Below, in pieces: positions 37,163 through 59,938 of a DNA stretch of 64,000 bases. The stretch is taken from NCBI RefSeq assembly GCF_001677475.2, contig NZ_CP015229.1, one strand, 5' to 3'. Source of the stretch: Escherichia coli (GTDB taxonomy: Bacteria; Pseudomonadota; Gammaproteobacteria; Enterobacterales; Enterobacteriaceae). Made by a program: the position numbers and the translations under genes. The stretch's first letter is position 1. Every line of letters starts with the position of its first letter. The notes beneath the pieces are model-generated. The model was given only the letters and a program-made list of their open reading frames with translations. It ran no database searches and had not been told where the DNA came from.

Positions 37163-39049
37163 ATGTCTTTTAGCGAATTTTATCAGCGTTCGATTAACGA
37201 ACCGGAGAAGTTCTGGGCCGAGCAGGCCCGGCGTATTGACTGGCAGACGCCCTTTACGCAAACGCTCGATCACAGCAATCCGCCGTTTGCCCGTTGGTTT
37301 TGTGAAGGCCGAACCAACTTGTGCCACAACGCTATCGACCGCTGGCTGGAGAAACAGCCAGAGGCGCTGGCGCTGATTGCCGTCTCTTCGGAAACAGAAG
37401 AAGAGCGCACCTTTACCTTCCGCCAGTTACATGACGAAGTGAATGCGGTGGCCTCAATGCTGCGCTCGCTGGGTGTGCAGCGCGGCGATCGGGTGCTGGT
37501 GTATATGCCGATGATTGCCGAAGCACATATTACTCTGCTGGCTTGCGCGCGCATTGGCGCTATTCACTCGGTGGTGTTTGGGGGATTTGCCTCGCACAGC
37601 GTGGCGGCGCGAATTGATGATGCTAAACCGGTGCTGATTGTCTCGGCTGATGCCGGAGCGCGCGGTGGCAAAATCATTCCCTATAAAAAATTGCTCGACG
37701 ATGCGATAAGTCAGGCGCAGCACCAGCCACGCCATGTTTTGCTGGTGGATCGCGGGCTGGCGAAAATGGCACGCGTCAGCGGGCGGGATGTCGATTTCGC
37801 GTCGTTGCGCCATCAACACATCGGCGCGCGGGTACCGGTGGCGTGGCTGGAATCCAATGAAACCTCCTGCATTCTCTACACCTCCGGCACGACCGGCAAA
37901 CCTAAAGGCGTGCAGCGTGACGTTGGCGGATATGCGGTGGCGCTGGCGACCTCGATGGACACCATTTTTGGCGGCAAAGCGGGCGGTGTGTTCTTTTGTG
38001 CTTCGGATATCGGCTGGGTGGTGGGGCATTCGTATATCGTCTACGCGCCGCTGCTGGCGGGGATGGCGACTATCGTTTACGAAGGATTACCGACCTGGCC
38101 GGACTGCGGCGTGTGGTGGAAAATCGTCGAGAAATATCAGGTTAGCCGGATGTTCTCAGCGCCGACCGCCATTCGCGTGCTGAAAAAATTCCCTACCGCT
38201 GAAATTCGCAAACACGATCTTTCGTCGCTGGAAGTGCTCTATCTGGCGGGAGAACCGCTGGACGAGCCGACCGCCAGTTGGGTGAGCAATACGCTGGATG
38301 TGCCGGTCATCGACAACTACTGGCAGACCGAATCCGGCTGGCCGATTATGGCGATTGCTCGTGGTCTGGACGACAGGCCGACGCGGCTGGGAAGCCCCGG
38401 CGTGCCGATGTATGGCTACAACGTGCAGTTGCTCAATGAAGTCACTGGTGAGCCGTGTGGTGTCAATGAGAAAGGGATGCTGGTGGTGGAAGGACCATTG
38501 CCGCCGGGCTGTATTCAGACCATCTGGGGCGATGACGACCGCTTTGTGAAGACTTACTGGTCGCTGTTTTCCCGTCCGGTTTACGCCACGTTTGACTGGG
38601 GTATCCGCGACGCTGACGGTTATCACTTTATTCTCGGGCGTACCGACGATGTGATTAACGTTGCCGGGCATCGGCTGGGAACGCGCGAGATTGAAGAGAG
38701 TATTTCCAGTCATCCGGGCGTTGCCGAAGTGGCGGTGGTTGGGGTGAAAGATGCGCTGAAAGGGCAGGTGGCGGTGGCGTTTGTCATTCCGAAAGAGAGC
38801 GATAGTCTGGAAGACCGCGACGTGGCGCACTCGCAAGAGAAGGCGATTATGGCGCTGGTGGACAGCCAGATTGGCAACTTTGGCCGCCCGGCGCACGTCT
38901 GGTTTGTCTCGCAATTGCCGAAAACGAGATCCGGAAAAATGCTGCGCCGCACGATCCAGGCGATTTGCGAAGGACGCGATCCGGGGGATCTGACAACCAT
39001 TGATGATCCTGCGTCGTTGGATCAGATCCGCCAGGCGATGGAAGAGTAA
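37163..39049 (+). CDS. prpE: propionyl-CoA synthetase
   Basis: 628 aa; acyl-CoA synthetase AMP-binding motif (YTSGTTGKPKG). Confidence 0.9.
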   Translation: MSFSEFYQRSINEPEKFWAEQARRIDWQTPFTQTLDHSNPPFARWFCEGRTNLCHNAIDRWLEKQPEALALIAVSSETEEERTFTFRQLHDEVNAVASMLRSLGVQRGDRVLVYMPMIAEAHITLLACARIGAIHSVVFGGFASHSVAARIDDAKPVLIVSADAGARGGKIIPYKKLLDDAISQAQHQPRHVLLVDRGLAKMARVSGRDVDFASLRHQHIGARVPVAWLESNETSCILYTSGTTGKPKGVQRDVGGYAVALATSMDTIFGGKAGGVFFCASDIGWVVGHSYIVYAPLLAGMATIVYEGLPTWPDCGVWWKIVEKYQVSRMFSAPTAIRVLKKFPTAEIRKHDLSSLEVLYLAGEPLDEPTASWVSNTLDVPVIDNYWQTESGWPIMAIARGLDDRPTRLGSPGVPMYGYNVQLLNEVTGEPCGVNEKGMLVVEGPLPPGCIQTIWGDDDRFVKTYWSLFSRPVYATFDWGIRDADGYHFILGRTDDVINVAGHRLGTREIEESISSHPGVAEVAVVGVKDALKGQVAVAFVIPKESDSLEDRDVAHSQEKAIMALVDSQIGNFGRPAHVWFVSQLPKTRSGKMLRRTIQAICEGRDPGDLTTIDDPASLDQIRQAMEE

Positions 39050-39320
39050 AGTATTGTCGGATGCGTCGCGCGCCGCATCCGACACCATGCGCAGATGCCT
39101 GATGCGACGCTGGCGCGTCTTATCATGCCTACAGGTCTGAACCGTAGGTCGGATAAGGCGCTCGCGCCGCATCCGACACCGTGCGCAGATGCCTGATGCG
39201 ACGCTGGCGCGTCTTATCATGCCTACAAGTCTGAACCGTAGGTCGGATAAGGCGCTCGCGCCGCATCCGACACCGTGCGCAGATGCCTGATGCGACGCTG
39301 GCGCGTCTTATCATGCCTAC
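39050..39320. repeat. REP/BIME array (three tandem ~119-bp units)
   Basis: Three near-identical copies of ...GCCGCATCCGACACCGTGCGCAGATGCCTGATGCGACGCTGGCGCGTCTTATCATGCCTAC... after prpE. Confidence 0.75.
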
Positions 39321-39472
39321 CCACTGTTTTTACACCGATAATTTTTCCCCCACCTTTTTGCGCTCATTCATATAAAAAATATATTTCCCCACGGAAACGA
39401 TTGCTTTTTATTTTCAGATGAATAGAATGCGGCGGATTTTTTGGGTTTCAAACAGCAAAAAGGGGGAATTTC

Positions 39473-39836
39473 GTGTCGCAAGATAACAACTTTAGCCAGG
39501 GGCCAGTCCCGCAGTCGGCGCGGAAAGGGGTATTGGCATTGACGTTCGTCATGCTGGGATTAACCTTCTTTTCCGCCAGTATGTGGACCGGCGGCACTCT
39601 CGGAACCGGTCTTAGCTATCATGATTTCTTCCTCGCAGTTCTCATCGGTAATCTTCTCCTCGGTATTTACACTTCATTTCTTGGTTACATTGGCGCAAAA
39701 ACCGGCCTGACCACTCATCTTCTTGCTCGCTTCTCGTTTGGTGTTAAAGGCTCATGGCTGCCTTCACTGCTGCTGGGCGGCACCCAGGTTGGCTGGTTTG
39801 GCGTTGGCGTGGCGATGTTTGCTATTCCGGTGGGCA
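39473..39836 (+). pseudogene. codB: cytosine permease CodB, 5' fragment (first ~121 codons) cut by element insertion
   Basis: Frame MSQDNNFSQGPVPQSARKG... matches the CodB N-terminus up to ...AIPVG, then diverges into element sequence and stops. Confidence 0.85.
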
Positions 39837-39921
39837 CCACATAGGTCAATACCACCACAATAAAATTTTCCAATAAAAAAGCCCCATCACAAGGACAGGG
39901 CTATAGAATCAATTACTTACA

Positions 39922-40227
39922 TCACTTAATGTCTTTCATTCTACGAATACGCGCGCTTGCTTCGGATAGTTCTTCCAGTGTTACGTGATGTGCAAGCATA
40001 TAGACAGGAGTCGGATCGAATCCCTCGTGAGTATTGATCAGATGACTATTCCCGCCTTTAAACTCATCCTGTCCATCCCATATAGCGTACACGTCATCTT
40101 CTGCTACATAGATAATCAATCCAATAGGGGAGTCAGTAAGCTGGAAGATGCAGCCAGTAGAATCAATGCGATGTTCCCGAACGTCATCAACAGTTTCAAA
40201 GTCAATCTTAATATCTTTAGTCTTCAT
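39922..40227 (-). CDS. hypothetical protein (att-proximal cargo)
   Basis: 101-aa ORF with a GAGGG SD; no recognisable motif. Confidence 0.5.
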   Translation of the reverse strand: MKTKDIKIDFETVDDVREHRIDSTGCIFQLTDSPIGLIIYVAEDDVYAIWDGQDEFKGGNSHLINTHEGFDPTPVYMLAHHVTLEELSEASARIRRMKDIK

Positions 40228-40527
40228 GATTTGCCCTCGCGTGAAAAATATTTTCGATTATTTATAAAAAAAGACTTGACAAAATCAAAAGGTACTGTTC
40301 CACTGGTGAAATAAAGGGAGTTTTCGGCACCCCGGTTTTTGATGTGCGTGTGAGATTTCAAAACAGGTGCAGTGCAGCCCACCAGCGCGGTCGCTACGCG
40401 ACTATTAACACCCGCCAATCCCTTTCCCCGCCTCGATCTTTCATCTCGTTATAAATCGTTTTAGGCGCTCTCCTGAATGCGCAGATCAGATAAATAATTT
40501 TACGCAAATTTAAAGGAGGATAACCGG

Positions 40528-41079
40528 ATGAAAGAAGAATTAACCCTTACAGAAATTTCCCGCTTATACGGCTATACAATTAACGCCGCTAAGAAATGGC
40601 AAGAACGAGGAATGCCATTTAATACCAATACACGACGCGTACCAGCCAAAGAGGGGACCGAGTGGGTATTAAAAAATATCATCAACCCGCTTAAAGAAAC
40701 TACTGTCAAGGAACAAATCGACGTAGAGAAGTTACGCCGTGAGAGAGCATTAGCGGATGCAGCCGAACGAGAGAACCAGGAAGCAATGAATCTCCTGATT
40801 CCGGTCGGTTATGTAGAACAGGAACTAGCGGAATATTGCGGAAAGGTGAAACAGACTATTTTGCAGATCGCCACAATCGATGCTTTAGAAATTCTTGAAT
40901 CTGCCACTGACCAGAAAACATTGAAGAATAAGCTAAGGGAGATCATCGAGCGTCGTTTAAATGAAGTAGGGGACTTGTTCGAAAATGCGGATTTGGGAGA
41001 AGACGAGGAAGAAGAATTACCATTAATCGATGAACCGGAACAAGAACCAGAAGAAGACGATGAATTTGATGTGTCTTAA
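40528..41079 (+). CDS. Nu1-like terminase small subunit candidate (HTH DNA-binding, acidic C-tail)
   Basis: N-terminus LTLTEISRLYGYTINAAKKWQERGMPF resembles the lambda Nu1 winged-HTH region, followed by EKLRRER and a coiled coil; strong AGGAGG SD. Confidence 0.45.
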   Translation: MKEELTLTEISRLYGYTINAAKKWQERGMPFNTNTRRVPAKEGTEWVLKNIINPLKETTVKEQIDVEKLRRERALADAAERENQEAMNLLIPVGYVEQELAEYCGKVKQTILQIATIDALEILESATDQKTLKNKLREIIERRLNEVGDLFENADLGEDEEEELPLIDEPEQEPEEDDEFDVS

Positions 41080-41177
41080 AACGCGTTATAAATAAATGTA
41101 TGAAAGATGTTGAGCTGGTCAACGTCTACGGGGGGAATCACCCCCCGCTAACCTTTTTCTTATTTGAGGATTTACCT

Positions 41178-41279
41178 ATGGTTGAATTTTTGATTTATCT
41201 GGCTGTAGGATTAACTATCGTATATTCACTGGCACATATTGGCATTTCTACTTTGTGTAACGCTTTCAAGTATCATTAA
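41178..41279 (+). CDS. 33-aa hydrophobic peptide
   Basis: ATG after a GAGGA SD; single predicted TM segment (MVEFLIYLAVGLTIVYSLAHIGISTLCNAFKYH); not in the ORF track (under 60 aa). Confidence 0.3.
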   Translation: MVEFLIYLAVGLTIVYSLAHIGISTLCNAFKYH

Positions 41280-41332
41280 TTAAATCGATGAATTGAACTA
41301 TAGATGATGGTCGTTTTCAAAGAGGATTATCT

Positions 41333-41506
41333 ATGGATCTTTTTGTCTATTTCGCTACTCTGCTGTTTTTGACTATCGTCGCTGGCATTAAATTGATTTT
41401 TATCTCGCTGGTGGTGTTTTTCAAATTTCTAATCGGTACGCCTTACGGCTGGGTATGCTTCTTCTTGTTTATTCTTTTTAGTTGCTGTAAATCAGACACT
41501 AAATAA
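41333..41506 (+). CDS. 57-aa two-TM membrane peptide
   Basis: ATG after an AGAGGA SD; MDLFVYFATLLFLTIVAGIKLIFISLVVFFKFLIGTPYGWVCFFLFILFSCCKSDTK. Confidence 0.35.
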   Translation: MDLFVYFATLLFLTIVAGIKLIFISLVVFFKFLIGTPYGWVCFFLFILFSCCKSDTK

Positions 41507-41665
41507 TATTGTAATCTGCCTTTCTCCTACATGGTTATTAACAGGGAATTTTCGAAAGAGAGTTCCCGATTAAAAGCCATAAAACACACTCCAGTACAGT
41601 GTTTTCATAGTCAGTGATCTATACATCATAAAAACATAACAAGTATAGATTGAGTGTTAATCCTC

Positions 41666-41690
41666 CCGCCCTTCGGGGCGGTTATTTTCT
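41666..41690 (+). terminator. intrinsic terminator (UUCG-tetraloop hairpin plus U-run)
   Basis: CCGCCC-TTCG-GGGCGG followed by TTATTTT. Confidence 0.5.
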
Positions 41691-41767
41691 GGCTTTACTA
41701 GATAATGTAGCATCATGTTCATTATAAACCTCATCTTTGTTGTGCAAACCTAACCTTAACCTAAGTA

Positions 41768-41800
41768 TAGGGAGTCTCTTAAATGGGACTCCCTTTTTTT
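41768..41800 (+). terminator. intrinsic terminator
   Basis: GGGAGTC...GACTCCC hairpin followed by TTTTTTT. Confidence 0.55.
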
Positions 41801-41801
41801 A

Positions 41802-42044
41802 TTATGCAACCACTCGAAGTGTAGGTTTCTTATGTTGTGTAGGTTTATTGCCATTTCGCCACTCAGGAAACACCTGATCCATCATAACCGCGTTAGTTTC
41901 ATCAATCAGCTTTAGAGTCTTTCGTAATGCGGCGTTATCAGCTTTAAGCGATTTAATCTCTGAATCCATCTTAGCCATACGCTCTTTCATGTTGGTAATT
42001 TCTAACATCAGATTACCCAGAAATTCTTTGTTTTGATTAATCAT
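41802..42044 (-). CDS. small coiled-coil protein
   Basis: 80 aa; SD AGGGGTAATT upstream; heptad-rich (MKERMAKMDSEIKSLKADNAALRKTLKL). Confidence 0.5.
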   Translation of the reverse strand: MINQNKEFLGNLMLEITNMKERMAKMDSEIKSLKADNAALRKTLKLIDETNAVMMDQVFPEWRNGNKPTQHKKPTLRVVA

Positions 42045-42059
42045 AGAATTACCCCTCTA

Positions 42060-51538: not shown

Positions 51539-53539
51539 ATGCTTAAATTTCGCCGCGATCTTAACGGTTACGGTGGAGTTATTAACGAAGGGCATAACGA
51601 TCAATACGAATTTGAAATTGCTTTCTCCAGTGAACAGCCTTATCAGCGCCAATTCTGGGATGAGCAAAATCAAGAAATGGTGGTATTAGATGAAATTCTG
51701 GTACATACACCGGAAGCGGTTGATCTGTCTCGTCTGAATAATAACGCTCCGTTGCTGTTCAATCACAATTTCGATAATCACATTGGTGTCGTTTGTAACG
51801 CTCGAATCGATGCGGATAACGTAGGTCGTGCTCTGGTTAAATTCTCCAAGCATGGGACTTTGGCTAATGATATTCGTAACAAAGTCATCGAAGGTACGAT
51901 GGAAAAAATTTCTGTCGGCTATGACATTAAAGAGTATCACATCGACTACGCCAAATCGCAACTCATTGTTTCTAAATGGATTCCTCACGAGGTTTCATGG
52001 GTCACGGTACCCGCAGACGACACAGTGGGTCTGAATCGCTCTCTAAATACTATCACAGTTAATTTGGAGGCTAAACGCGATATGACTAAAGAACAAATCG
52101 AAGAAATCAAAAACGAAGAAGCCGCTCCGGTTGAAGAAACTCCGGTAGAAGAAAATAAAGAACCGGAAGTTGAAGAAACTCAAGAGCGCCAAGTTGAAGA
52201 GAATAAAGAAAATGAAAATCTCGAAGACGGAAAAGACGCTGAACATCCTGAAAGTGTTGATGATGATAGTTCAACTGTTCGGGAAGAAGAAATAAAAGAA
52301 GAACGTGAAGCTGCTCCGGTTGAAGAAGAAAAAATTGAAGAAGTGGCTGAACGTTCCGAAGAAGACGAATTAGAAATCCGCGAGATCGCGCGGGAACTAA
52401 ATATTGATGACTCTGAATTAGCACGTGCATTGTCGATTAAAGACATGACGCCGGAAGCATTCCGCACTAAGGCACTAAATAATCTCGTCAATGCTCAACG
52501 TAATAACGAACAACAAATTAAGGACTCTAAAATGGAAAAAACTTTTGACCTGAACAACGTAATTCGCTCTCTGGTAGATGGTGCTGCTCTGGGTGCTAAC
52601 GAAGCTGAATATTCCGCTATGGCTGCTACTGCAACTATGCAGCGTGGTCGTGCTGCTCGTGGTGGCTCCGTATTCGTTCCGGCTGCTGCTCTGCGTGCTG
52701 CTGCTGCTGGTAACACTAAAGCTACTCTGGAAGCTGTAACCGACGAAAAACTGCTGACTGAATCCTACATCGAAATGCTGATGCCTCAGAGTGTTTTAGG
52801 CCGCCTCGGTGTGACCGTTCTGTCTGGTCTGAATAGCCCGATCGCTGTTCCGAAAATGACTGCTTCCAGCGTTGACGCTTTCGGCTTCGTTGATGAAAAC
52901 GGTGCTGCACCGGAAAGCAAAGCTCAGTTTGAAAACGTGAAAATGGCTCCTAAGACTTTCGCAGGTGGCAACCCGATCAGCCGTCAGTCTCTGAAAACCG
53001 TTCCGGGTATCGCTACCCTGATCACTGATCACATTAACAAAGCTGTTCGCATCAAACTGGAACAACTGATTCTGTCTGATAAAGCTAACGACCGTGGTCC
53101 GGCTGGTCTGGTTAAGCAACTGGTAGACGCGGGTCGCGTTACTAAGAAAGCCGCTTTCTCTTACAAAGACTTCCTGAAAGAAATTGCAGCACTGACCGAC
53201 GCTGGCGTTCCTGCTCAGGCGATCAAGTTTGCGATGAGCGGTGCAACTGCTGCTGAACTGGAATCTACCCTGAAAGATAACGGCGTTTCCGGTTATATCA
53301 TCGAAAACGGCAAACTGGCTGGTTACGAAGTAGTTACTTCTGGTGTTATCCCGGCAGACCACATCGTTCTGGGCGCGTTCGACGGTATCACCATTGGTGA
53401 GTGGGGCGGTCTGGAACTGGATATGGACGACACTACCTACCGTGCACAGTCTGCAATCGTTCCGCGTATCTGGGTAGATCTGGATTACGTTGTAACCCAG
53501 CCGGAAGCTCTGAAAGTTCTCCAGATTGGCGGTGAATGA
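51539..53539 (+). CDS. prohead protease - acidic scaffold - major capsid polyprotein (in-frame, with internal start at 52532)
   Basis: N-terminal S78-like protease motifs (APLLFNHNFDNHIGVV, SVGYD, VSWVTVPADD); E-rich linker; C-terminal ~335 aa with optimised codons and capsid-like composition; internal ATG at 52532 with AAGGA SD. Confidence 0.75.
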   Translation: MLKFRRDLNGYGGVINEGHNDQYEFEIAFSSEQPYQRQFWDEQNQEMVVLDEILVHTPEAVDLSRLNNNAPLLFNHNFDNHIGVVCNARIDADNVGRALVKFSKHGTLANDIRNKVIEGTMEKISVGYDIKEYHIDYAKSQLIVSKWIPHEVSWVTVPADDTVGLNRSLNTITVNLEAKRDMTKEQIEEIKNEEAAPVEETPVEENKEPEVEETQERQVEENKENENLEDGKDAEHPESVDDDSSTVREEEIKEEREAAPVEEEKIEEVAERSEEDELEIREIARELNIDDSELARALSIKDMTPEAFRTKALNNLVNAQRNNEQQIKDSKMEKTFDLNNVIRSLVDGAALGANEAEYSAMAATATMQRGRAARGGSVFVPAAALRAAAAGNTKATLEAVTDEKLLTESYIEMLMPQSVLGRLGVTVLSGLNSPIAVPKMTASSVDAFGFVDENGAAPESKAQFENVKMAPKTFAGGNPISRQSLKTVPGIATLITDHINKAVRIKLEQLILSDKANDRGPAGLVKQLVDAGRVTKKAAFSYKDFLKEIAALTDAGVPAQAIKFAMSGATAAELESTLKDNGVSGYIIENGKLAGYEVVTSGVIPADHIVLGAFDGITIGEWGGLELDMDDTTYRAQSAIVPRIWVDLDYVVTQPEALKVLQIGGE

Positions 53540-53672
53540 ACTCCTGTAGAACCATCTGAACCTTCCCCCGATTTGGGGGAAGAAAATCTGATTCCTGAAC
53601 CGGAAGAAGAATCCCAGACGGTTAAGGCGAAAGCCACAGTTAAAAAACAACGTAAAACTAAAGAATAATAAT

Positions 53673-53701
53673 TAGCCCTGCCTAACGGTGGGGCTTTTTT
53701 G
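53673..53701 (+). terminator. intrinsic terminator after the capsid gene
   Basis: GC hairpin (AGCCCTGCCTAACGGTGGGGCT) followed by TTTTTT. Confidence 0.55.
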
Positions 53702-53730
53702 TATGTAAATACTCCATAAAGGGGGTAACT

Positions 53731-54021
53731 ATGTTCAAATTATCAGAATCACAATTATCAAGAATGTTTAAGAGTGCTCCTGTATTTGTGGTGGAAGGTG
53801 GTAAATCAATTCGTGCTTATCATGAAATTACTACTACCGACGAATCAGGGGTAATGACAGAAACAGAATTTCTATTCTGTCGTGAGGGAGACTTAAAGCA
53901 AGGTGATATTGTCACAGTAGAAAACCAGCGTTTCAAAGTTCAATATATTAAGCGCAATGGTGACAATACAACTGATTGCTTTATTACTCTGGCAGGGGGT
54001 ACACATGCTCGCTACCGTTAA
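53731..54021 (+). CDS. small virion protein (head-tail adaptor/connector candidate)
   Basis: 96 aa; AAGGGGGTAAC SD; follows the capsid gene. Confidence 0.45.
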   Translation: MFKLSESQLSRMFKSAPVFVVEGGKSIRAYHEITTTDESGVMTETEFLFCREGDLKQGDIVTVENQRFKVQYIKRNGDNTTDCFITLAGGTHARYR

Positions 54022-54427
54022 TAATATGCCGAGACTGAAAATCAAACGCGCCTTGCAAGATATTATCGAACAAGATTTAGGTCTGGCTTTAAACGTAGAA
54101 CAAACTCAGCAAGGCTTTAGCGATGACGTGGTTTGTTGGATTACTGGCATGAATGAAACTTATACGCGTGTTCGTGGTGGTAATGCAATGCAAGCTGAAT
54201 GTGTTATCGAAATGCAGTTATATTCTCAGATTCATGAAACGAAAATTCATGAGGGTATTTGCGAGATAATCCAGATTCAGCCGGATAACCCACGATTTAA
54301 AGATTTGGGCTTCTCAATTTCAGATATCACTCCAGTAGCTTCTAATACCGATTATGACGATGATTCTAGTGATGGGGGTATCGTTGGGACACTTAGCCTT
54401 AAATTTTCTTATCTAGCGCGTTTTTAA
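54005..54427 (+). CDS. small virion protein (head-tail connector candidate)
   Basis: 141 aa from MLATVNNMP; start overlaps the upstream gene end by 17 nt. Confidence 0.45.
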   Translation: MLATVNNMPRLKIKRALQDIIEQDLGLALNVEQTQQGFSDDVVCWITGMNETYTRVRGGNAMQAECVIEMQLYSQIHETKIHEGICEIIQIQPDNPRFKDLGFSISDITPVASNTDYDDDSSDGGIVGTLSLKFSYLARF

Positions 54428-54436
54428 GGGGTAATA

Positions 54437-55270
54437 ATGAATATTACACAAGATAACTTAGACATTTTCACGGGGTCGCATGTTGAAGTCTCCTTGTCTA
54501 CTATGGTGGATAACCAGCCGGACTTTTTCGATCCTGCATTTAGTCCTATCGAGAACATCGCAGCATTCCCGACGATAACCGAATCCACAGAGATCCAGAC
54601 GTTAGAAGAATATGACCATGATGTTACTGGTAAGTTGGCTGGCTATCGTAAACTTGAATCAACTACGTTAGTAGTAAACCGTGTTCTGGATGATGAACAT
54701 CAAGACATGTTGATGAAAGCGGTGAATGATAAAACTCCTTTACGCTTTCGTATGTTCTATGTTGTGAACTCTGGTTACAGTGCTGCTAACACAGGTTACT
54801 ACGTCATCTTTGACGCTTTCGTCTCGTCACATAAAACAAAATCCGGCGATAACAAAGTTACTACAATCGAGTTTAAATTAGAACCTGATGGCGGGATTCT
54901 GGATCGCGGTATTGCTACCGAAGGCCGGATCTTACGTCAAGGTGATTTTGGTCTGGGTGCTGGTGTAAATCCATTCACGGGTCCGATTGATAGCGAAGCA
55001 TTAGCCGGAAACCGTTTCGTAACCTATCAGGGATCGAGCGCATCTAACCCATTTAGTGCTGATACTTCACTAATTCACGTTCAACCTAATGAAGATGGAG
55101 GATGGCAATTAACTTGCACCGCCTCCGGCGCACCACGTTTACGAGTTCGCACAGTCCAGAAAGATGGTAATTCTGGATGGGTGAAAGTGTATTCCACAGA
55201 AGAAAAACCGACACCAGCCGAGATTGAAGCCGTTTCTATCCATGACAGGATCGATTTCGGGGAATACTGA
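54437..55270 (+). CDS. virion protein (neck/tail-tube-like candidate)
   Basis: 277 aa; AAGGGGTAATA SD; Gly/Ser-rich beta-type composition. Confidence 0.5.
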   Translation: MNITQDNLDIFTGSHVEVSLSTMVDNQPDFFDPAFSPIENIAAFPTITESTEIQTLEEYDHDVTGKLAGYRKLESTTLVVNRVLDDEHQDMLMKAVNDKTPLRFRMFYVVNSGYSAANTGYYVIFDAFVSSHKTKSGDNKVTTIEFKLEPDGGILDRGIATEGRILRQGDFGLGAGVNPFTGPIDSEALAGNRFVTYQGSSASNPFSADTSLIHVQPNEDGGWQLTCTASGAPRLRVRTVQKDGNSGWVKVYSTEEKPTPAEIEAVSIHDRIDFGEY

Positions 55271-55346
55271 TTGCTTCTCTAAATAAAAACATGACGCGGG
55301 GAGGTTAACGCCTCCCTTATTCCTGTTTTTATAGTGAGGTGATTAG

Positions 55347-58274
55347 ATGCAATCAATCCAATTTAAACGAACTAGTGTTTCTGGCAAAAAACCTACGCCG
55401 GAACAATTACAGGTCGGTGAGGTAGCAATCAACCTTAAAGACCATGTTATTTTCACCAAAGACCGAGATAATGCCGTAGTTCAAATCTCTGTTTCTCCTG
55501 AAACTCACACTGCATTAGAAACTAAAGTTAATGCGAATAAGAAAGAATTAGACGGCAAGATTACTACAAATCACAACAATATTAACGCTAAAGTAGATGA
55601 AATTAAACAAACTACTGATGCAACTATCGCAGCAAATCACGCAGAAATTAACAATAAAGTTGATGTGATTAAGCGCGAAACCGATGCGACAATCACGGCT
55701 AATAAAAATAAAGCTGCTTCCGACCTTGCTGGCGTTAAAGCTGAATTGTCCGATACCATCACCGCTAATAAAAATGCGGCTGCTGTAGCAACTCAGGAAC
55801 TGGACACCCGCATCAATAAAAAAGTTGATGATAACAAAGCTAAAACTGATGCAACTATCGCCAGCAATCACAAAGCAATCAATGACAAAGTTGATTTGAT
55901 TAAGGCCGAGACTGACCGCACTATCGCAGCAAATAAAACATATGCTGATACTCAGCTAACTAATGCTACTAATGATCTGAATACTGTCATTGCTGCAAAT
56001 AAAAAAGAAGCTGCTGATAGCGTGGCTGCATTAACTAAGACTGTAAACACTAAAGATACAGCGATTCATAGAAAAGTTGACGAGAATAAAGCACTGACCG
56101 ACGCGGAATTATCCCGTTTGTCTGGACGACTTGAAGATGTTGCTAGTATTGGTCAAAACCGAGGCGAATTGCCAGTAGATGCTAATCTTGATCACTATGG
56201 TCCACGTTCAGAATTTGCTGGTATTTGGGGTAAATCGACTTCAACGAATGCACAACCAAGTCACAATTTCCCAGAAGAAAATGCTGTAGGTGTTCTGGAA
56301 GTTTTCACAGGCGGTCAATTCTCTGGGACTCAGCGTTATACAACACGCTACGGTAATATCTACATTCGTTCTCTTACCGCTACATGGAATGGTACTGATG
56401 GTCCGTGGTCGCCGTGGCGCAATATTCAGATGGGTACACGTCCGCTTTCGTCAACCATCGATCTTAATGATTTGGGTGGAGTTGAGCATTTTGGTTTATG
56501 GCGCAATAGCTCTAACTCAATTGCGGCTCTAGAAAGGAATTTCCCAGAAGCTGGGGCGATGGCACAAGGTCTTTTAGAAGTCTTTGAGGGTGGCAACTAC
56601 TCCCGCACTCAGCGTTATACGACCAGAATGGGCGTTGTATATGTTCGCTGTCTTGCTGCTGCATGGGATGCTAGTGCTCCTAAATGGGGTCCGTGGCAAC
56701 AAGTAGGTAATGTAACACCGTCTACTTTCTATGACGGAAACCTGAACAACTTCAAAACACCTGGTTTATATAACATTTTAGGCACTGACAAAGTTACTAA
56801 CCGTCCTGTTGCAGAAGGTGTTCCGGTTGAGATGACCGCATTGCTTGAGGTTAAACAGCGTGCTTCCGGTGGCGCTATTTTCCAACGTTTCACTACCGCA
56901 GGAACGGGAACTACTACCCGTGGTCGTGTTTTTGAACGTGCAATGACAAATAATATCTGGGGAGATTGGCACGAAGTACATACATCATATTCTATGCCAA
57001 TTACTTTAGGTATCGGTGGGATTAAAACACAATTAGAATCTTTAGATTGGCAAACTTTTGATTTTGTTCCTGGTAGCATGTTTAGCGTGCCATTGAATAA
57101 AATTACCAATATGCCAGCAAAAATGGATTGGGGAACAATTGACGGAAACCTGATCATGTTTTCCGTTGGTCCTAGTGAACACACTAGCACAGGGCGTACT
57201 GTTCAGGTTTGGCGTGGTACTGTGTCTCAAGCAAACTACCGTTATTTTGTTGTTCGTGTATTTGGTAATTCAGGAGAGAGAACTTGCACCGTTCGCCGTG
57301 TTGCTCTTGAGGATGGTCGCCATACATGGACAGCACAACAAGATTTTAACGGCGCGGTTAACTTCGGTGGGTCTGTTGTTAACTTTAAAACAGCCACTAA
57401 CTTTAATAACACTACCAGTTTTAAAACAGAAGCTAAATTTCTTTCATCTAATGCATTCCGTATGTATGGCGGTAATTTTGGTGCATTCTTGCGTAATGAT
57501 GGTGAAAGTGTTTATCTTCTTTCCACCAATGAAAATGATAAAGATGGAAACTATAATACAAATAGACCTTTCCGGTATCAGTTAAAAACTGGTGATGTTA
57601 CTTTGGGTGGAACTAGCGGTGCTGATATTTTAAGATTAAAAAGTAGTTCTCTTGCTGCTACCTTTGGCGGTGATGTTAATTTAAGTAAAGGCGTATTGAC
57701 GTTTGAAGCTGGCGGTAAGCAATCTCGCGATTATTTCCGGTTTAATCATTGGGGTGATAGCAATAAAGCTCGCGATAACATCATTCAGTTAGAAGATAGT
57801 AAAGGTGCTCATTTTTCCACTGAACGCACACTGGCAACGGGTGCAATCAAAACTAAGTTCTTTGGTGAAGTTGAATCCGATGGTCGATTAACTATTAAAC
57901 GTCCGGGTGATGCTATTGTATTATCGACTACAGCTAGCAACTCGTTGCATATTCGTGGTGATGTTGGTGGAAGCAATAACTGGTATATTGGTAAAGGTGG
58001 TGCTGATAATTCACTAGCATTTTATAGCTACGCAACTAAAGCGGGTATACACATCACAAATAATGGTGAGATATCATTTGCCCCGCAAAATTTTGCTGGT
58101 ATTAACATTAACAAAGACCGTATCTATATCAATGCTACACAATGGATTGCTAATCATTCCGGTTCATGGGATGGACAGTGGAGAGAAGAAGCACCCATCT
58201 TTATTGATCAGGGTAGTGTTGGACAAGATAGCTATTATCCTCTTATTAAAGGACATAGCCAGATCACAGGTTGA
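55347..58274 (+). CDS. long fibre / receptor-binding-like protein, 3' end interrupted by an IS3-family element
   Basis: 975 aa: N-terminal alpha-helical repeats (TDATIAANH..., TDATITANKN..., TDATIASNHK...), then three ~55-aa tandem domains (…TQRYTTRYGNIYIRSL…, …TQRYTTRMGVVYVRCL…, …FQRFTTAGTGTTTRGRVFERAM…); stop codon TGA is the first 3 nt of the IS. Confidence 0.6.
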   Translation: MQSIQFKRTSVSGKKPTPEQLQVGEVAINLKDHVIFTKDRDNAVVQISVSPETHTALETKVNANKKELDGKITTNHNNINAKVDEIKQTTDATIAANHAEINNKVDVIKRETDATITANKNKAASDLAGVKAELSDTITANKNAAAVATQELDTRINKKVDDNKAKTDATIASNHKAINDKVDLIKAETDRTIAANKTYADTQLTNATNDLNTVIAANKKEAADSVAALTKTVNTKDTAIHRKVDENKALTDAELSRLSGRLEDVASIGQNRGELPVDANLDHYGPRSEFAGIWGKSTSTNAQPSHNFPEENAVGVLEVFTGGQFSGTQRYTTRYGNIYIRSLTATWNGTDGPWSPWRNIQMGTRPLSSTIDLNDLGGVEHFGLWRNSSNSIAALERNFPEAGAMAQGLLEVFEGGNYSRTQRYTTRMGVVYVRCLAAAWDASAPKWGPWQQVGNVTPSTFYDGNLNNFKTPGLYNILGTDKVTNRPVAEGVPVEMTALLEVKQRASGGAIFQRFTTAGTGTTTRGRVFERAMTNNIWGDWHEVHTSYSMPITLGIGGIKTQLESLDWQTFDFVPGSMFSVPLNKITNMPAKMDWGTIDGNLIMFSVGPSEHTSTGRTVQVWRGTVSQANYRYFVVRVFGNSGERTCTVRRVALEDGRHTWTAQQDFNGAVNFGGSVVNFKTATNFNNTTSFKTEAKFLSSNAFRMYGGNFGAFLRNDGESVYLLSTNENDKDGNYNTNRPFRYQLKTGDVTLGGTSGADILRLKSSSLAATFGGDVNLSKGVLTFEAGGKQSRDYFRFNHWGDSNKARDNIIQLEDSKGAHFSTERTLATGAIKTKFFGEVESDGRLTIKRPGDAIVLSTTASNSLHIRGDVGGSNNWYIGKGGADNSLAFYSYATKAGIHITNNGEISFAPQNFAGININKDRIYINATQWIANHSGSWDGQWREEAPIFIDQGSVGQDSYYPLIKGHSQITG

Positions 58275-58334
58275 ATCGCCACGGGTTTAACAGACACCTC
58301 AGAGTCATTTAAGATGGCTTAAAGAGAGGTGCCC

Positions 58335-58613
58335 ATGAGCGGTAAGCGTTATCCCGAAGAGTTTAAAATTGAAGCAGTCAAACAGGTTGTTGATCGCGGT
58401 TATTCTGTTGCCAGCGTTGCAACACGTCTCGATATCACCACCCACAGCCTTTACGCCTGGATAAAGAAGTACGGTCCGGATTCTTCCGCTAATAAAGAAC
58501 AGTCAGATGCTCAGGCCGAGATCCGCCGTCTCCAGAAAGAGCTGAAGCGGGTTACCGACGAACGGGACATATTAAAAAAAGCCGCGGCGTACTTCGCAAA
58601 GCTGTCCGACTGA
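58335..58613 (+). CDS. IS3-family transposase OrfA (HTH)
   Basis: MSGKRYPEEFKIEAVKQVV... HTH and leucine-zipper region ending ...ILKKAAAYFAKLSD. Confidence 0.85.
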   Translation: MSGKRYPEEFKIEAVKQVVDRGYSVASVATRLDITTHSLYAWIKKYGPDSSANKEQSDAQAEIRRLQKELKRVTDERDILKKAAAYFAKLSD

Positions 58614-58669
58614 GGTACGCCTTTATCCGTGACAACACCTGTTGCTGGCCTGTTCGCCTGCTCTGTCGG

Positions 58670-59482
58670 GTGCTGGATGTTCATCCCAGTGGTTTTTACG
58701 CCTGGCTTCAGCAGCCGCATTCACAACGCCATCAGGCAGACCTGAGGCTGACAGGGCAGATTAAACAGTTCTGGCTGGAATCGGGATGCGTCTATGGTTA
58801 TCGCAAAATCCATCTGGATCTGCGGGACAGCGGGCAACAGTGCGGAGTGAACAGAGTCTGGCGACTGATGAAACGTGTCGGGATAAAGGCTCAGGTCGGA
58901 TACCGGAGCCCGCGGGCACGTAAAGGCGAGGCCAGTATCGTGTCGCCCAACAGGCTCCAGCGACAGTTCAATCCGGATGCTCCGGATAAGCGTTGGGTAA
59001 CGGACATAACCTACATCAGGACCCACGAAGGCTGGCTGTATCTTGCCGTGGTTGTTGATCTGTTCTCACGCAAAATTATCGGCTGGTCCATGCAATCCCG
59101 GATGACAAAGGACATTGTCCTGAACGCACTGCTGATGGCTGTATGGCGCCGTAATCCCCAAAAACAGGTGCTGGTTCATTCGGATCAGGGCAGTCAGTAC
59201 ACAAGCCATGAGTGGCAGTCGTTCCTGAAATCACACGGCCTGGAGGGCAGCATGAGCCGTCGCGGTAACTGCCATGATAATGCGGTTGCAGAAAGCTTTT
59301 TCCAGTTGTTGAAACGCGAACGGATAAAGAAAAAGATCTACGGAACGCGGGAAGAAGCCCGCAGCGATATTTTTGATTACATCGAAATGTTTTATAACAG
59401 TAAGCGTCGGCATGGTTCCAGCGATCAGATGTCACCGACAGAATATGAAAACCAGTATTATCAACGGCTCGGAAGTGTCTAG
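58670..59482 (+). CDS. IS3-family transposase OrfB (DDE catalytic domain; made as OrfAB by -1 frameshift)
   Basis: DDE integrase-core motifs (…WVTDITYI…, HSDQGSQYTS, …RGNCHDNAVAESFF…). Confidence 0.85.
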   Translation: MLDVHPSGFYAWLQQPHSQRHQADLRLTGQIKQFWLESGCVYGYRKIHLDLRDSGQQCGVNRVWRLMKRVGIKAQVGYRSPRARKGEASIVSPNRLQRQFNPDAPDKRWVTDITYIRTHEGWLYLAVVVDLFSRKIIGWSMQSRMTKDIVLNALLMAVWRRNPQKQVLVHSDQGSQYTSHEWQSFLKSHGLEGSMSRRGNCHDNAVAESFFQLLKRERIKKKIYGTREEARSDIFDYIEMFYNSKRRHGSSDQMSPTEYENQYYQRLGSV

Positions 59483-59500
59483 ATTATCCGTGGCGATTCA

Positions 59501-59938
59501 GACAAATTTATTAAATTTGGAATCACTACCCGAAAACCAGAAGAACGAATGAGAGAGCAAACCAGAAAGAGCAACTTCACTCACCGATTAATCTTTACTC
59601 ATGAGTTTGAGGATGGTTGGAAAGCTGCCGATTTAGAGCATGAAGTAAAACAACGCTTCAAGACTCATGCCGCACCCTACAAAGATTTCAAGGATGGATG
59701 GTCGGAAACTCTGACTATCGATGAGTTGCCACACTTACAGCAACTGGTTTATGACTACCTAACCAATCAACCGGACGAGGCTAATATGTGGGTATCCCCG
59801 AAAGATGTATTTGATGACGATACATTCAAGCTACATACTCACTTCTACGGCATCAATAAACCGGAATTTTTCTGTATTGATGACGATAGTCCTGATTTAA
59901 TGGATGAATACTTTAATTCTCTCTTAGACGCTGCCTAA
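59501..59938 (+). pseudogene. T5orf172/GIY-YIG-like domain remnant, in frame with the fibre gene across the IS
   Basis: Frame DKFIKFGITTRKPEERMREQ... is open from the IS edge with no start of its own and is in frame with 55347-58271 once the IS is removed; motif resemblance is from memory. Confidence 0.4.

Follow-up and report, generated by a model that had tools for sequence, protein, structure and literature searches.

Two small membrane-protein genes on a structured transcript next to the small terminase gene of an Escherichia coli prophage-like element

The mRNAs of type I toxins are described by a small set of features, namely 5′ stem-loops, an anti-Shine–Dalgarno (anti-SD) element that sequesters the Shine–Dalgarno (SD) sequence either locally or through long-distance 5′–3′ pairing near the terminator, and a 3′ terminator stem-loop (PMC8594479). 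In the case of aapA1, the full-length transcript cannot be translated until its 3′ end has been processed (PMC5416894). Here we analyze a unit of two small open reading frames (ORFs), designated ORF1 and ORF2, that lies in a prophage-like element of Escherichia coli within a 64,000-nucleotide (nt) stretch of contig NZ_CP015229.1 (this whole stretch is referred to as the window, and all coordinates are positions within it). The unit resembles hok/sok of plasmid R1 and aapA1/IsoA1 of Helicobacter pylori in that a small hydrophobic ORF is preceded by a 5′ stem-loop, in that an anti-SD motif lies by the 3′ terminator and is predicted to close the mRNA on the SD, in the occurrence of local SD hairpins, and in that the RNA structure is better conserved than the peptide. 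It differs from both systems in that an antisense or trans-acting antitoxin RNA was not found, in that it encodes two cistrons or a three-helix protein of 92–95 amino acids (aa) rather than one peptide of <60 aa, and in that it is fixed by a phage terminase gene rather than free-standing. Moreover, its products have no sequence homology to Hok, Ldr, TisB, Ibs, Zor, AapA, ShoB, DinQ or GhoT/OrtT.

Three other kinds of system invite comparison. Holins of class I (such as S of phage lambda) and class II (such as S21) are also small phage proteins with two or three transmembrane (TM) helices, and RNA structure close to the start site keeps their translation at a low level; unlike these holins, the proteins considered here are not encoded by an endolysin gene, match no family, lack a dual start, and have a very short charged C-terminus, and we know of no description of 3′ anti-SD control for a holin. 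Morons and exclusion genes, such as those for HK97 gp15 and T4 Imm, likewise encode small inner-membrane proteins, have their own terminators, lie near a prophage end, and vary between related phages. The genes described here, however, occur in every family member rather than sporadically, have no identifiable lysogen-active promoter, and appear built for poor translation. Finally, some prophage small RNAs (sRNAs) carry anti-SD seeds; DicF of Qin, for example, ends in a terminator and has a pyrimidine-rich CCUC sequence that can pair with ribosome-binding sites. The locus shares with DicF a terminator-ended prophage RNA and a CCUC motif able to pair with ribosome-binding sites, but it has no Rfam match and is always linked in cis to a membrane-protein cassette.

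ORF1, ORF2 and the slot that they occupy

The coding part of the locus consists of the following features.
40528–41079, + strand: gene for the small terminase subunit (TerS), 183 aa, directly upstream of the small ORFs and in the same orientation
41178–41279, + strand: ORF1, 33 aa, one TM helix (MVEFLIYLAVGLTIVYSLAHIGISTLCNAFKYH)
41280–41332, + strand: ORF1–ORF2 spacer, 53 nt, which holds the SD of ORF2
41333–41506, + strand: ORF2, 57 aa, two hydrophobic segments, C-terminus CCKSDTK

The initial annotation of this DNA had proposed two small ORFs with good SD sequences and hydrophobic, membrane-spanning products, and this description is borne out at 41178–41279 and 41333–41506. In particular, the sequence GAGGAT occurs at 41166–41171, 6 nt upstream of the ATG at 41178, and again at 41322–41327, 5 nt upstream of the ATG at 41333; the grand average of hydropathy is 1.21 for ORF1 and 1.61 for ORF2, with one hydrophobic segment in the former and two in the latter. 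The ORFs are also conserved in related elements, where they are intact and unchanged in length at 21 of 22 loci, the sole damaged copy being a remnant cut by an insertion sequence (IS) in which ORF1 is frameshifted. Conservation within the unit is lowest across the ORFs, and yet stops and frameshifts are absent save in the ORF1 of that one remnant. Furthermore, the variants show an excess of synonymous changes in the proposed frame of ORF1 (13 synonymous, 7 nonsynonymous, P=1e-4) and of ORF2 (25 synonymous, 33 nonsynonymous, P=5e-4), and no such excess in the other two frames of either ORF (P>0.2). Pairwise pN/pS values were mostly ~0.1–0.3 (ranging from 0.09 to 0.92 where changes were few), and ORF1 compared with the divergent lineage gave 0.15. 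Because the ORFs are conserved, invariant in length, and show a synonymous excess limited to the proposed frames, we conclude from their sequence evolution that ORF1 and ORF2 are genuine genes for small membrane proteins. Public data contain seven protein clusters of ORF2, and a 68%-identical homologue of ORF2 is found on metagenome contigs with the same order of TerS, a 33-aa ORF and a 57-aa ORF. The spacer between the two genes is more uniform than they are, all but 2 of its 53 bases being identical in four aligned sequences that include the divergent locus L026, although the flanking ORFs differ.

The Prokaryotic Genome Annotation Pipeline (PGAP) leaves the cassette unannotated in each of the 29 complete RefSeq genomes of E. 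coli with the split pair. Small membrane proteins that fall below annotation cut-offs are systematically missed, and this locus provides a clean, conservation-backed example. Three further candidate frames were rejected: a 59-aa reading of ORF1 from the ATG at 41100, since relatives have a 2-nt indel within the extension; a 28-aa + strand ORF at 41531–41617, which is not conserved as a frame because relatives have a 1-nt indel immediately following its start codon; and a 25-aa − strand ORF at 41657–41734, which is broken by indels in the loop of the first terminator described below.

ORF1 and ORF2 constitute one allele of a cassette that lies next to the small terminase gene in every member of this family. 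At 8 of 23 loci from IMG/VR, homology to the window ends at 41157 and restarts at 41498, and the interval is occupied by a single 94-aa ORF that has its own SD and encodes three hydrophobic helices; AlphaFold2 likewise models the 94-aa protein as three helices (pLDDT 84). Among 5426 complete E. coli genomes, 29 contain the split cassette, 31 contain the single-ORF cassette, and 62 contain the downstream 3′ RNA region, and wherever the flanks are found in E. coli (62 copies) they enclose one cassette or the other (29 + 31), as they do in all of the distant lineages. A profile search of the full library added four further distant homologues of 92–95 aa (31–42% identity), each of which is placed after TerS and before a convergent operon, and the TerS gene precedes the membrane-protein cassette in every relative. 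Scans of IMG/VR in which the distant homologues P0017 and P0020 served as queries gave no match, and a pattern scan that covered one genome for each species produced a single match, which we attribute to chance.

The split pair is like the single protein in position, in summed length (90 versus 94 aa), in helix count, and in its last two codons, and an origin by gene fission is therefore a possibility. Homology between the pair and the 94-aa gene was nevertheless unproven, and we describe the relationship as positional replacement. Thus, hhalign gave a probability of 0.4–2% for the split pair against the 94-aa protein, ORF1 and ORF2 scored no better than shuffles against a hidden Markov model of the 94-aa protein family, and global alignment of the split and single alleles at the DNA level gave z=0.1–2.9, compared with 4–17 among true homologues. 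Whole-protein alignment against composition shuffles reached z values up to 6, probably reflecting a shared layout of hydrophobic segments.

A separate observation concerns the borders of the cassette. In locus L033 the membrane-protein cassette lies between two copies of a 17-nt direct repeat (GATACTAAATAATAGTG; ~3877–3893 and ~4268–4284), and the window contains a weaker version (41087–41100 and 41498–41513) whose downstream copy lies over the stop codon and is kept in all lineages. This repeat may be a site of cassette exchange or a pair of −10-like boxes.

No family in Pfam or NCBIfam (E<=0.1 to 1), and none in PHROGs or PADLOC, was matched by ORF1, ORF2 or the 94-aa allele. In searches for holins, the NCBIfam holin_1 model gave 13.5 bits against a cutoff of 150, and PHROGs returned no holin. 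A Foldseek search of BFVD with the AlphaFold2 model of the 94-aa protein found nothing below E=1.

Conserved RNA structures and a predicted closure of the transcript

Conservation is higher in the non-coding parts of the unit than in the ORFs, and these parts contain the following structures.
41105–41127, + strand: leader stem-loop SL0 (AGAUGUUGA / UCAACGUCU), with a U-G pair inside
41129–41147, + strand: G-rich leader hairpin, CGGGGGG-AAUCA-CCCCCCG
41531–41580, + strand: stem-loop SL1 of the 3′ untranslated region (3′-UTR), with an outer, a middle and a 10-bp inner helix and a CA/GA internal loop (RNAalifold consensus)
41617–41650, + strand: 3′-UTR stem-loop SL2, with an 8-bp stem and an 18-nt loop containing the conserved AUAACAAG
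41666–41689, + strand: terminator T1, CCGCCC-TTCG-GGGCGG (in RNA, CCGCCC-UUCG-GGGCGG) followed by a T-run
41769–41801, + strand: terminator T2, with a 10-bp stem and the loop UUAAAU, followed by T7 (U7 in RNA)

SL1 and SL2 lie in a conserved structured RNA of ~160 nt between the stop codon of ORF2 and T1. In an alignment of 11 sequences that included four distant lineages (A6), each of the 14 pairs of SL1 was 100% paired, 7 of them with compensatory changes, and SL2 was 98.9% paired, with 7 of its 8 pairs changed on both sides and four different stem sequences across the lineages. Over both stem-loops, 99.6% of cells were paired and 14 of 22 pairs were compensatory, whereas in controls in which the 3′ partners were slid by 1–3 columns only 34–50% of cells could pair. 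The fold z was −4.2 for the + strand and −2.5 for the − strand; because of an invariant U-G pair in SL1 and of several G-U variants, we assign this structure to the + strand RNA. SL0 is assigned to the + strand RNA because of its U-G pair. When SL0 and the G-rich hairpin were counted together (alignment A7), 98.6% of cells were paired and five pairs were compensated, compared with 42–62% of cells in slid controls. The G-rich hairpin itself was 100% paired in nine lineages, with three pairs altered on both sides. In addition, the nucleotides ACTAAATAATAKTGT, which span the stop codon, are kept in all lineages, and a similar box occurs upstream of the unit.

The unit ends, as had been proposed, in two tandem + strand terminators, and the region as a whole contains five terminator-like sites where 1.6 would be expected. 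Pairing in T1 is kept despite variation among lineages, its loop being UUCG, GAAA or GAAG and its stem 6–7 bp long, with a different stem in locus L037. T2 has the form GGGACUC-UUCG-GAGUCCC in relatives. The suggestion that UUCG hairpins bracket the unit therefore holds for T1 but not for the window copy of T2, whose loop is UUAAAU, nor for the upstream G-rich hairpin, whose loop is AAUCA. The latter is not a canonical terminator in the window, where it has no UUCG loop and the U-run begins 8 nt past the stem; it is flagged as terminator-like only in relatives in which the T-run is nearer the stem, and the window copy is unflagged. T2 is probably bidirectional and would then also terminate a convergent 80-aa gene (41802–42044, − strand), because the adjacent, conserved AAACCUAA..CCUAA tract (41750–41801) provides a U-rich tail on the − strand and because the corresponding hairpin in locus L031 is called on both strands.

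No match to Rfam 15 was found in 40000–42300 (E<=1), nor was any toxin-leader or antitoxin family found in 39000–45000, the sole significant matches in the stretch searched being to naRNA4/REP at 39055–39317. Together with the protein searches described above, these results place the locus outside the described protein and RNA families. The locus reveals a structured, strongly covarying RNA that had not been described before, and none of 50,697 deposited phage genomes provides a characterized relative of the prophage family in which this RNA occurs.

Some hairpin loops appear flipped between relatives: the loop of the G-rich hairpin is GAACA in L001 (12054–12070) and TGTTC in L008 (612–628), and the T1 loop is UUCG in L023 and GAAG in L025, as if the hairpins had been inverted, for example by template switching.

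Beyond these local helices, three short motifs bear on how the 3′ end of the transcript may contact its 5′ end.
41166–41171, + strand: GAGGAU, SD of ORF1 and 5′ side of the predicted long-range pairing, invariant in all lineages
41660–41665, + strand: AUCCUC, an anti-SD motif directly 5′ of T1 and predicted partner of 41166–41171
41729–41732, + strand: a second CCUC motif, in the T1–T2 spacer

The AUCCUC motif is invariant in all lineages, even where the stems of SL2 and T1 differ. In transcripts terminated at T1, closure of GAGGAU on AUCCUC, ~490 nt apart, is present in the minimum free energy fold of six of seven lineages. The partition function gives this pairing a probability of 0.83 in the window and of 0.93, 0.98, 0.35, 0.44, 0.65 and 0.95 in the others; it ranks first or nearly first among the 10–23 complementary 6-mer pairs that lie >300 nt apart in each RNA, most of the others being close to 0. 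We infer from these folds that the completed transcript is closed by SD/anti-SD pairing of its 5′ and 3′ ends, with the caution that predictions of long-range folding can be wrong. For the distant single-ORF alleles, a local hairpin (UUAUCUC/GAGGUAA) is predicted to contain the true SD, with a probability of 0.86–0.99 in L031, L036 and L037; in L033 a compensatory variant of this hairpin can be recognized by eye, although the predicted fold differs. Similarly, the bases of the ORF2 SD pair locally with a probability of 0.95 in the read-through fold. The motif AAUCCU(C/U) recurs upstream of T2 in all lineages, and in read-through transcripts of L012 and L031 this second motif is the predicted partner of the leader GAGGAU (0.99 and 0.87, respectively).

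Two promoter-like features were considered.
41087–41093, + strand: TATAAAT box, candidate (unproven) −10 element for the small-ORF unit
41721–41748, − strand: leftward promoter-like site TTTGCA-16-TATAAT (10 of 12 matches), a weakly supported candidate source of antisense RNA

The TATAAAT box is kept in the window and in L026, L001, L031, L036 and L037 amid varying sequence, with no consensus −35 element. Promoter scans of the window and relatives returned no + strand promoter for the unit and did not report the TATAAAT box, and no + strand promoter was evident in the T1–T2 spacer. On the opposite strand, where the initial annotation had suggested looking for an antisense RNA, none was found as a conserved feature. 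The site at 41748..41721 was rejected as such, since the length of its spacer differs among close relatives (15 bp in most of them, 17 bp in L012) and distant lineages lack the site; a second − strand promoter-like site (41660..41633), in the SL2 loop, recurs in some lineages, and no − strand terminator for the candidate antisense RNAs was found.

Possible functions of the unit

Three options had been raised for the small ORFs, namely a holin, a type I toxin, or an exclusion factor, and it is the type I toxin that gains most support, from the 5′ stem-loops, the SD-sequestering anti-SD elements, and the predicted 5′–3′ closure. We tentatively favor, as a distinct possibility, a membrane-active, toxin-like small-protein module under fold-back translational control. 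In this model, the slot just downstream of the small terminase gene, which holds the split pair of small inner-membrane proteins here and a single three-helix protein of 92–95 aa in other members, would be expressed in each case from an mRNA of ~590–700 nt with two 5′ stem-loops, two covarying 3′-UTR stem-loops, and AUCCUC beside the UUCG terminator. AUCCUC would fold back over ~490 nt onto the SD of ORF1 or, in single-ORF alleles, onto a conserved pseudo-SD, the true SD there being held in its own local hairpin. A completed transcript would be closed and poorly translatable, so that little of a potentially harmful membrane-active protein would be made, and the lock would lift if the 3′ end were removed or remodelled, following the same logic as hok, aapA1 and other mRNAs of type I toxins. 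Translation of the unit would accordingly be expected to be repressed, its products may be toxic at the membrane, and its biological role could lie in prophage maintenance, abortive killing, or the timing of lysis. A more specific proposal is that of a prophage type I-like toxin module, serving prophage maintenance or abortive killing, in which a three-helix protein or a naturally split one- plus two-helix pair is locked by 5′–3′ SD/anti-SD pairing and in which the SL1-SL2-CCUC-terminator region acts as a processing platform or as the antitoxin; in this full form we consider it rather doubtful.

Several observations weigh against a toxin-like module under fold-back control. The core of the long-range pairing is invariant and so without covariation, and the closure rests on conservation and on thermodynamic prediction for a 600-nt RNA; in read-through transcripts the predicted partners shift. 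There is no match to Hok/Gef or to any other toxin family, and none to PADLOC, and the allelic three-helix protein of 92–95 aa exceeds the typical size of type I toxins. An antitoxin RNA was not identified; promoter-like sites do occur on the − strand, but they are unconserved beyond close relatives and their spacers vary. Lastly, the presence of the gene in every family member also fits a core phage function, such as that of a holin. If the predicted lock is real, control in the style of hok and aapA1 would extend to a larger multi-helix or two-cistron membrane protein beside a packaging gene, and would provide a testable link between mRNA architecture and prophage retention or the control of lysis; if it is not, the locus still contains a well-supported pair of new small-protein genes.

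A first alternative is that the three-helix protein, split in the window, is a holin similar to those of class I, or an antiholin or other partner in the timing of lysis, produced late together with TerS and translated at a low level set by the RNA structures. A size of 92–95 aa with three helices fits class I holins, the gene is core-like in being present in all family members, and it is co-oriented with and adjacent to the late gene for TerS; indeed, the holin gene of phage T7 adjoins its small terminase gene. The initial annotation had argued for lysis on the different ground that no other lysis genes are visible in the element, leaving these ORFs as the only candidates. It is true that the window contains none (tblastn found no endolysin), but this is because the element is a defective deletion remnant. 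When compared with an intact 35-kb relative (strain FDAARGOS_946), homology runs over 40275–56089 and begins again at 59925, and the element lacks ~15 kb of tail and lysis genes that intact relatives possess. In those relatives the missing stretch holds, along with the tail genes, an M15 endolysin (phrog_894, E=1.7e-45) close to TM proteins of 92 aa and 56 aa, and the argument for a lysis role from the lack of other candidates therefore falls. The endolysin of the intact relative (L030:17503–17856) is at the opposite end of the prophage from the TerS-linked cassette, which thus lies outside the lysis cassette, ~30 kb off on the prophage map; across attP the distance is ~6 kb, with opposite-strand genes between. 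The 92-aa and 56-aa proteins are the more conventional holin candidates, although in intact relatives none of the proteins encoded by the endolysin gene's neighbors matches a holin family either. For the proteins encoded by the cassette, besides the lack of a family match and of a dual-start motif, the C-terminal tail is just KSDTK or KQTK and is only weakly charged, and closure by a 3′ anti-SD would be, to our knowledge, without precedent in holins. The ORFs are thus probably not the missing lysis genes of the phage, and a holin-type function seems to us unlikely.

We regard as similarly improbable that the cassette encodes an inner-membrane protein of lysogenic conversion or superinfection exclusion, one that is made by the prophage, that shields the lysogen by blocking the entry of DNA or in some other way, and whose divergent alleles reflect an arms race. 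Small inner-membrane exclusion proteins such as HK97 gp15 and T4 Imm are known, the unit lies near the attL end of the prophage and is closed by terminators, and its proteins are highly divergent or replaced between conserved flanks, as is typical of diversifying pressure. Within alleles, however, selection is purifying rather than diversifying, and, in contrast to classical morons, the gene occurs throughout the family. Furthermore, the scans identified no lysogen-active promoter, the elaborate sequestration of the SD points to minimal expression rather than steady production, and neither PHROGs nor PADLOC gave a match.

The conservation of the non-coding region beyond that of the ORFs could also mean that the 3′ region gives rise to one or two independent sRNAs, derived from the 3′-UTR or from a promoter of their own, whose CCUC seed acts in trans on the SDs of ORF1 and ORF2 or of host genes, the peptides being secondary. 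The strong covariation of SL1 and SL2 would be in keeping with this, as would the maintenance of ACTAAATAATAKTGT over the stop codon in all lineages and the placement of a conserved single-stranded CCUC by a U-tailed terminator hairpin, which is seen in 3′-UTR-derived sRNAs. Yet no conserved + strand promoter was found upstream of the 3′ region, no Rfam family matches it, and it never occurs without the membrane-protein cassette in the 62 E. coli genomes. As an explanation of the locus we judge this to be quite unlikely, although an sRNA is compatible with the favored toxin-like module rather than exclusive of it, and could coexist with any of the functions considered. That the ORFs are non-functional and open only through the structural constraint on the surrounding RNA, which is clear, is already largely refuted, and very improbable despite their omission by PGAP, since they are the least conserved part of the unit and have still not gained stops or frameshifts save in one ORF1 remnant, since the synonymous excess is specific to the proposed frames, and since the replacement allele is also a hydrophobic ORF.

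The prophage-like element and its neighborhood

The element (~39845–62900, ~23 kb) is inserted in codB and splits this gene, the 5′ part of which lies at 39473–39844 and the remainder from ~62913 (62913–63818). A gene for a large serine recombinase (60012–61709, − strand) is found at the right end of the element, which also encodes a lambda-gpA-type large terminase, a portal protein, and a capsid protein. Related elements in other E. coli lie inside hicB, and distant relatives inside a gene for a PHP-domain protein; insertion sites inside genes (codB, hicB, and the PHP-domain gene) are as expected for a large serine recombinase. The product of 40528–41079 matches the small terminase subunit family phrog_57 over residues 1–164 (E=2.6e-15), with a weak match to the helix-turn-helix of Nu1. 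No relative of the element at the DNA level was found in a database of 50,697 deposited phage genomes, in which a single weak match to TerS was obtained, and a literature search for prophages that integrate in hicB turned up only an unrelated paper. The family to which the element belongs, E. coli prophages that use a large serine recombinase for integration, had not been characterized before. At the site of the deletion, the stretch of the window without homology to the intact relative (56089–59925) contains an IS3-family element (orfA/orfB, 58329–59482), and the tail-fibre gene upstream of it (55347–58274) is homologous to relatives only as far as 56089.

Several minor observations were made in and around the element. 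The genes for the small and large terminase subunits (40528–41079 and 47497–49404) are 6.4 kb apart, which is unusual for a packaging system of the lambda-gpA type, and the interval between them is an early/regulatory region that includes a Rha-family gene (45463–46305). A GC-rich stretch with AT-rich surroundings (40330–40440), within conserved sequence that precedes the small terminase gene, could be a cos site or another RNA. At the attL end, where relatives carry an LprI-family protein as cargo, the window has a 101-aa ORF (39922–40227, − strand) whose DNA matches hypothetical genes in T4-like phages, JSE among them, over 105 nt (74% at the nucleotide level). Just upstream of codB, three repeats of the repetitive extragenic palindromic (REP) type at 39055–39317 match Rfam naRNA4 (RF02564), two of them above the gathering score.

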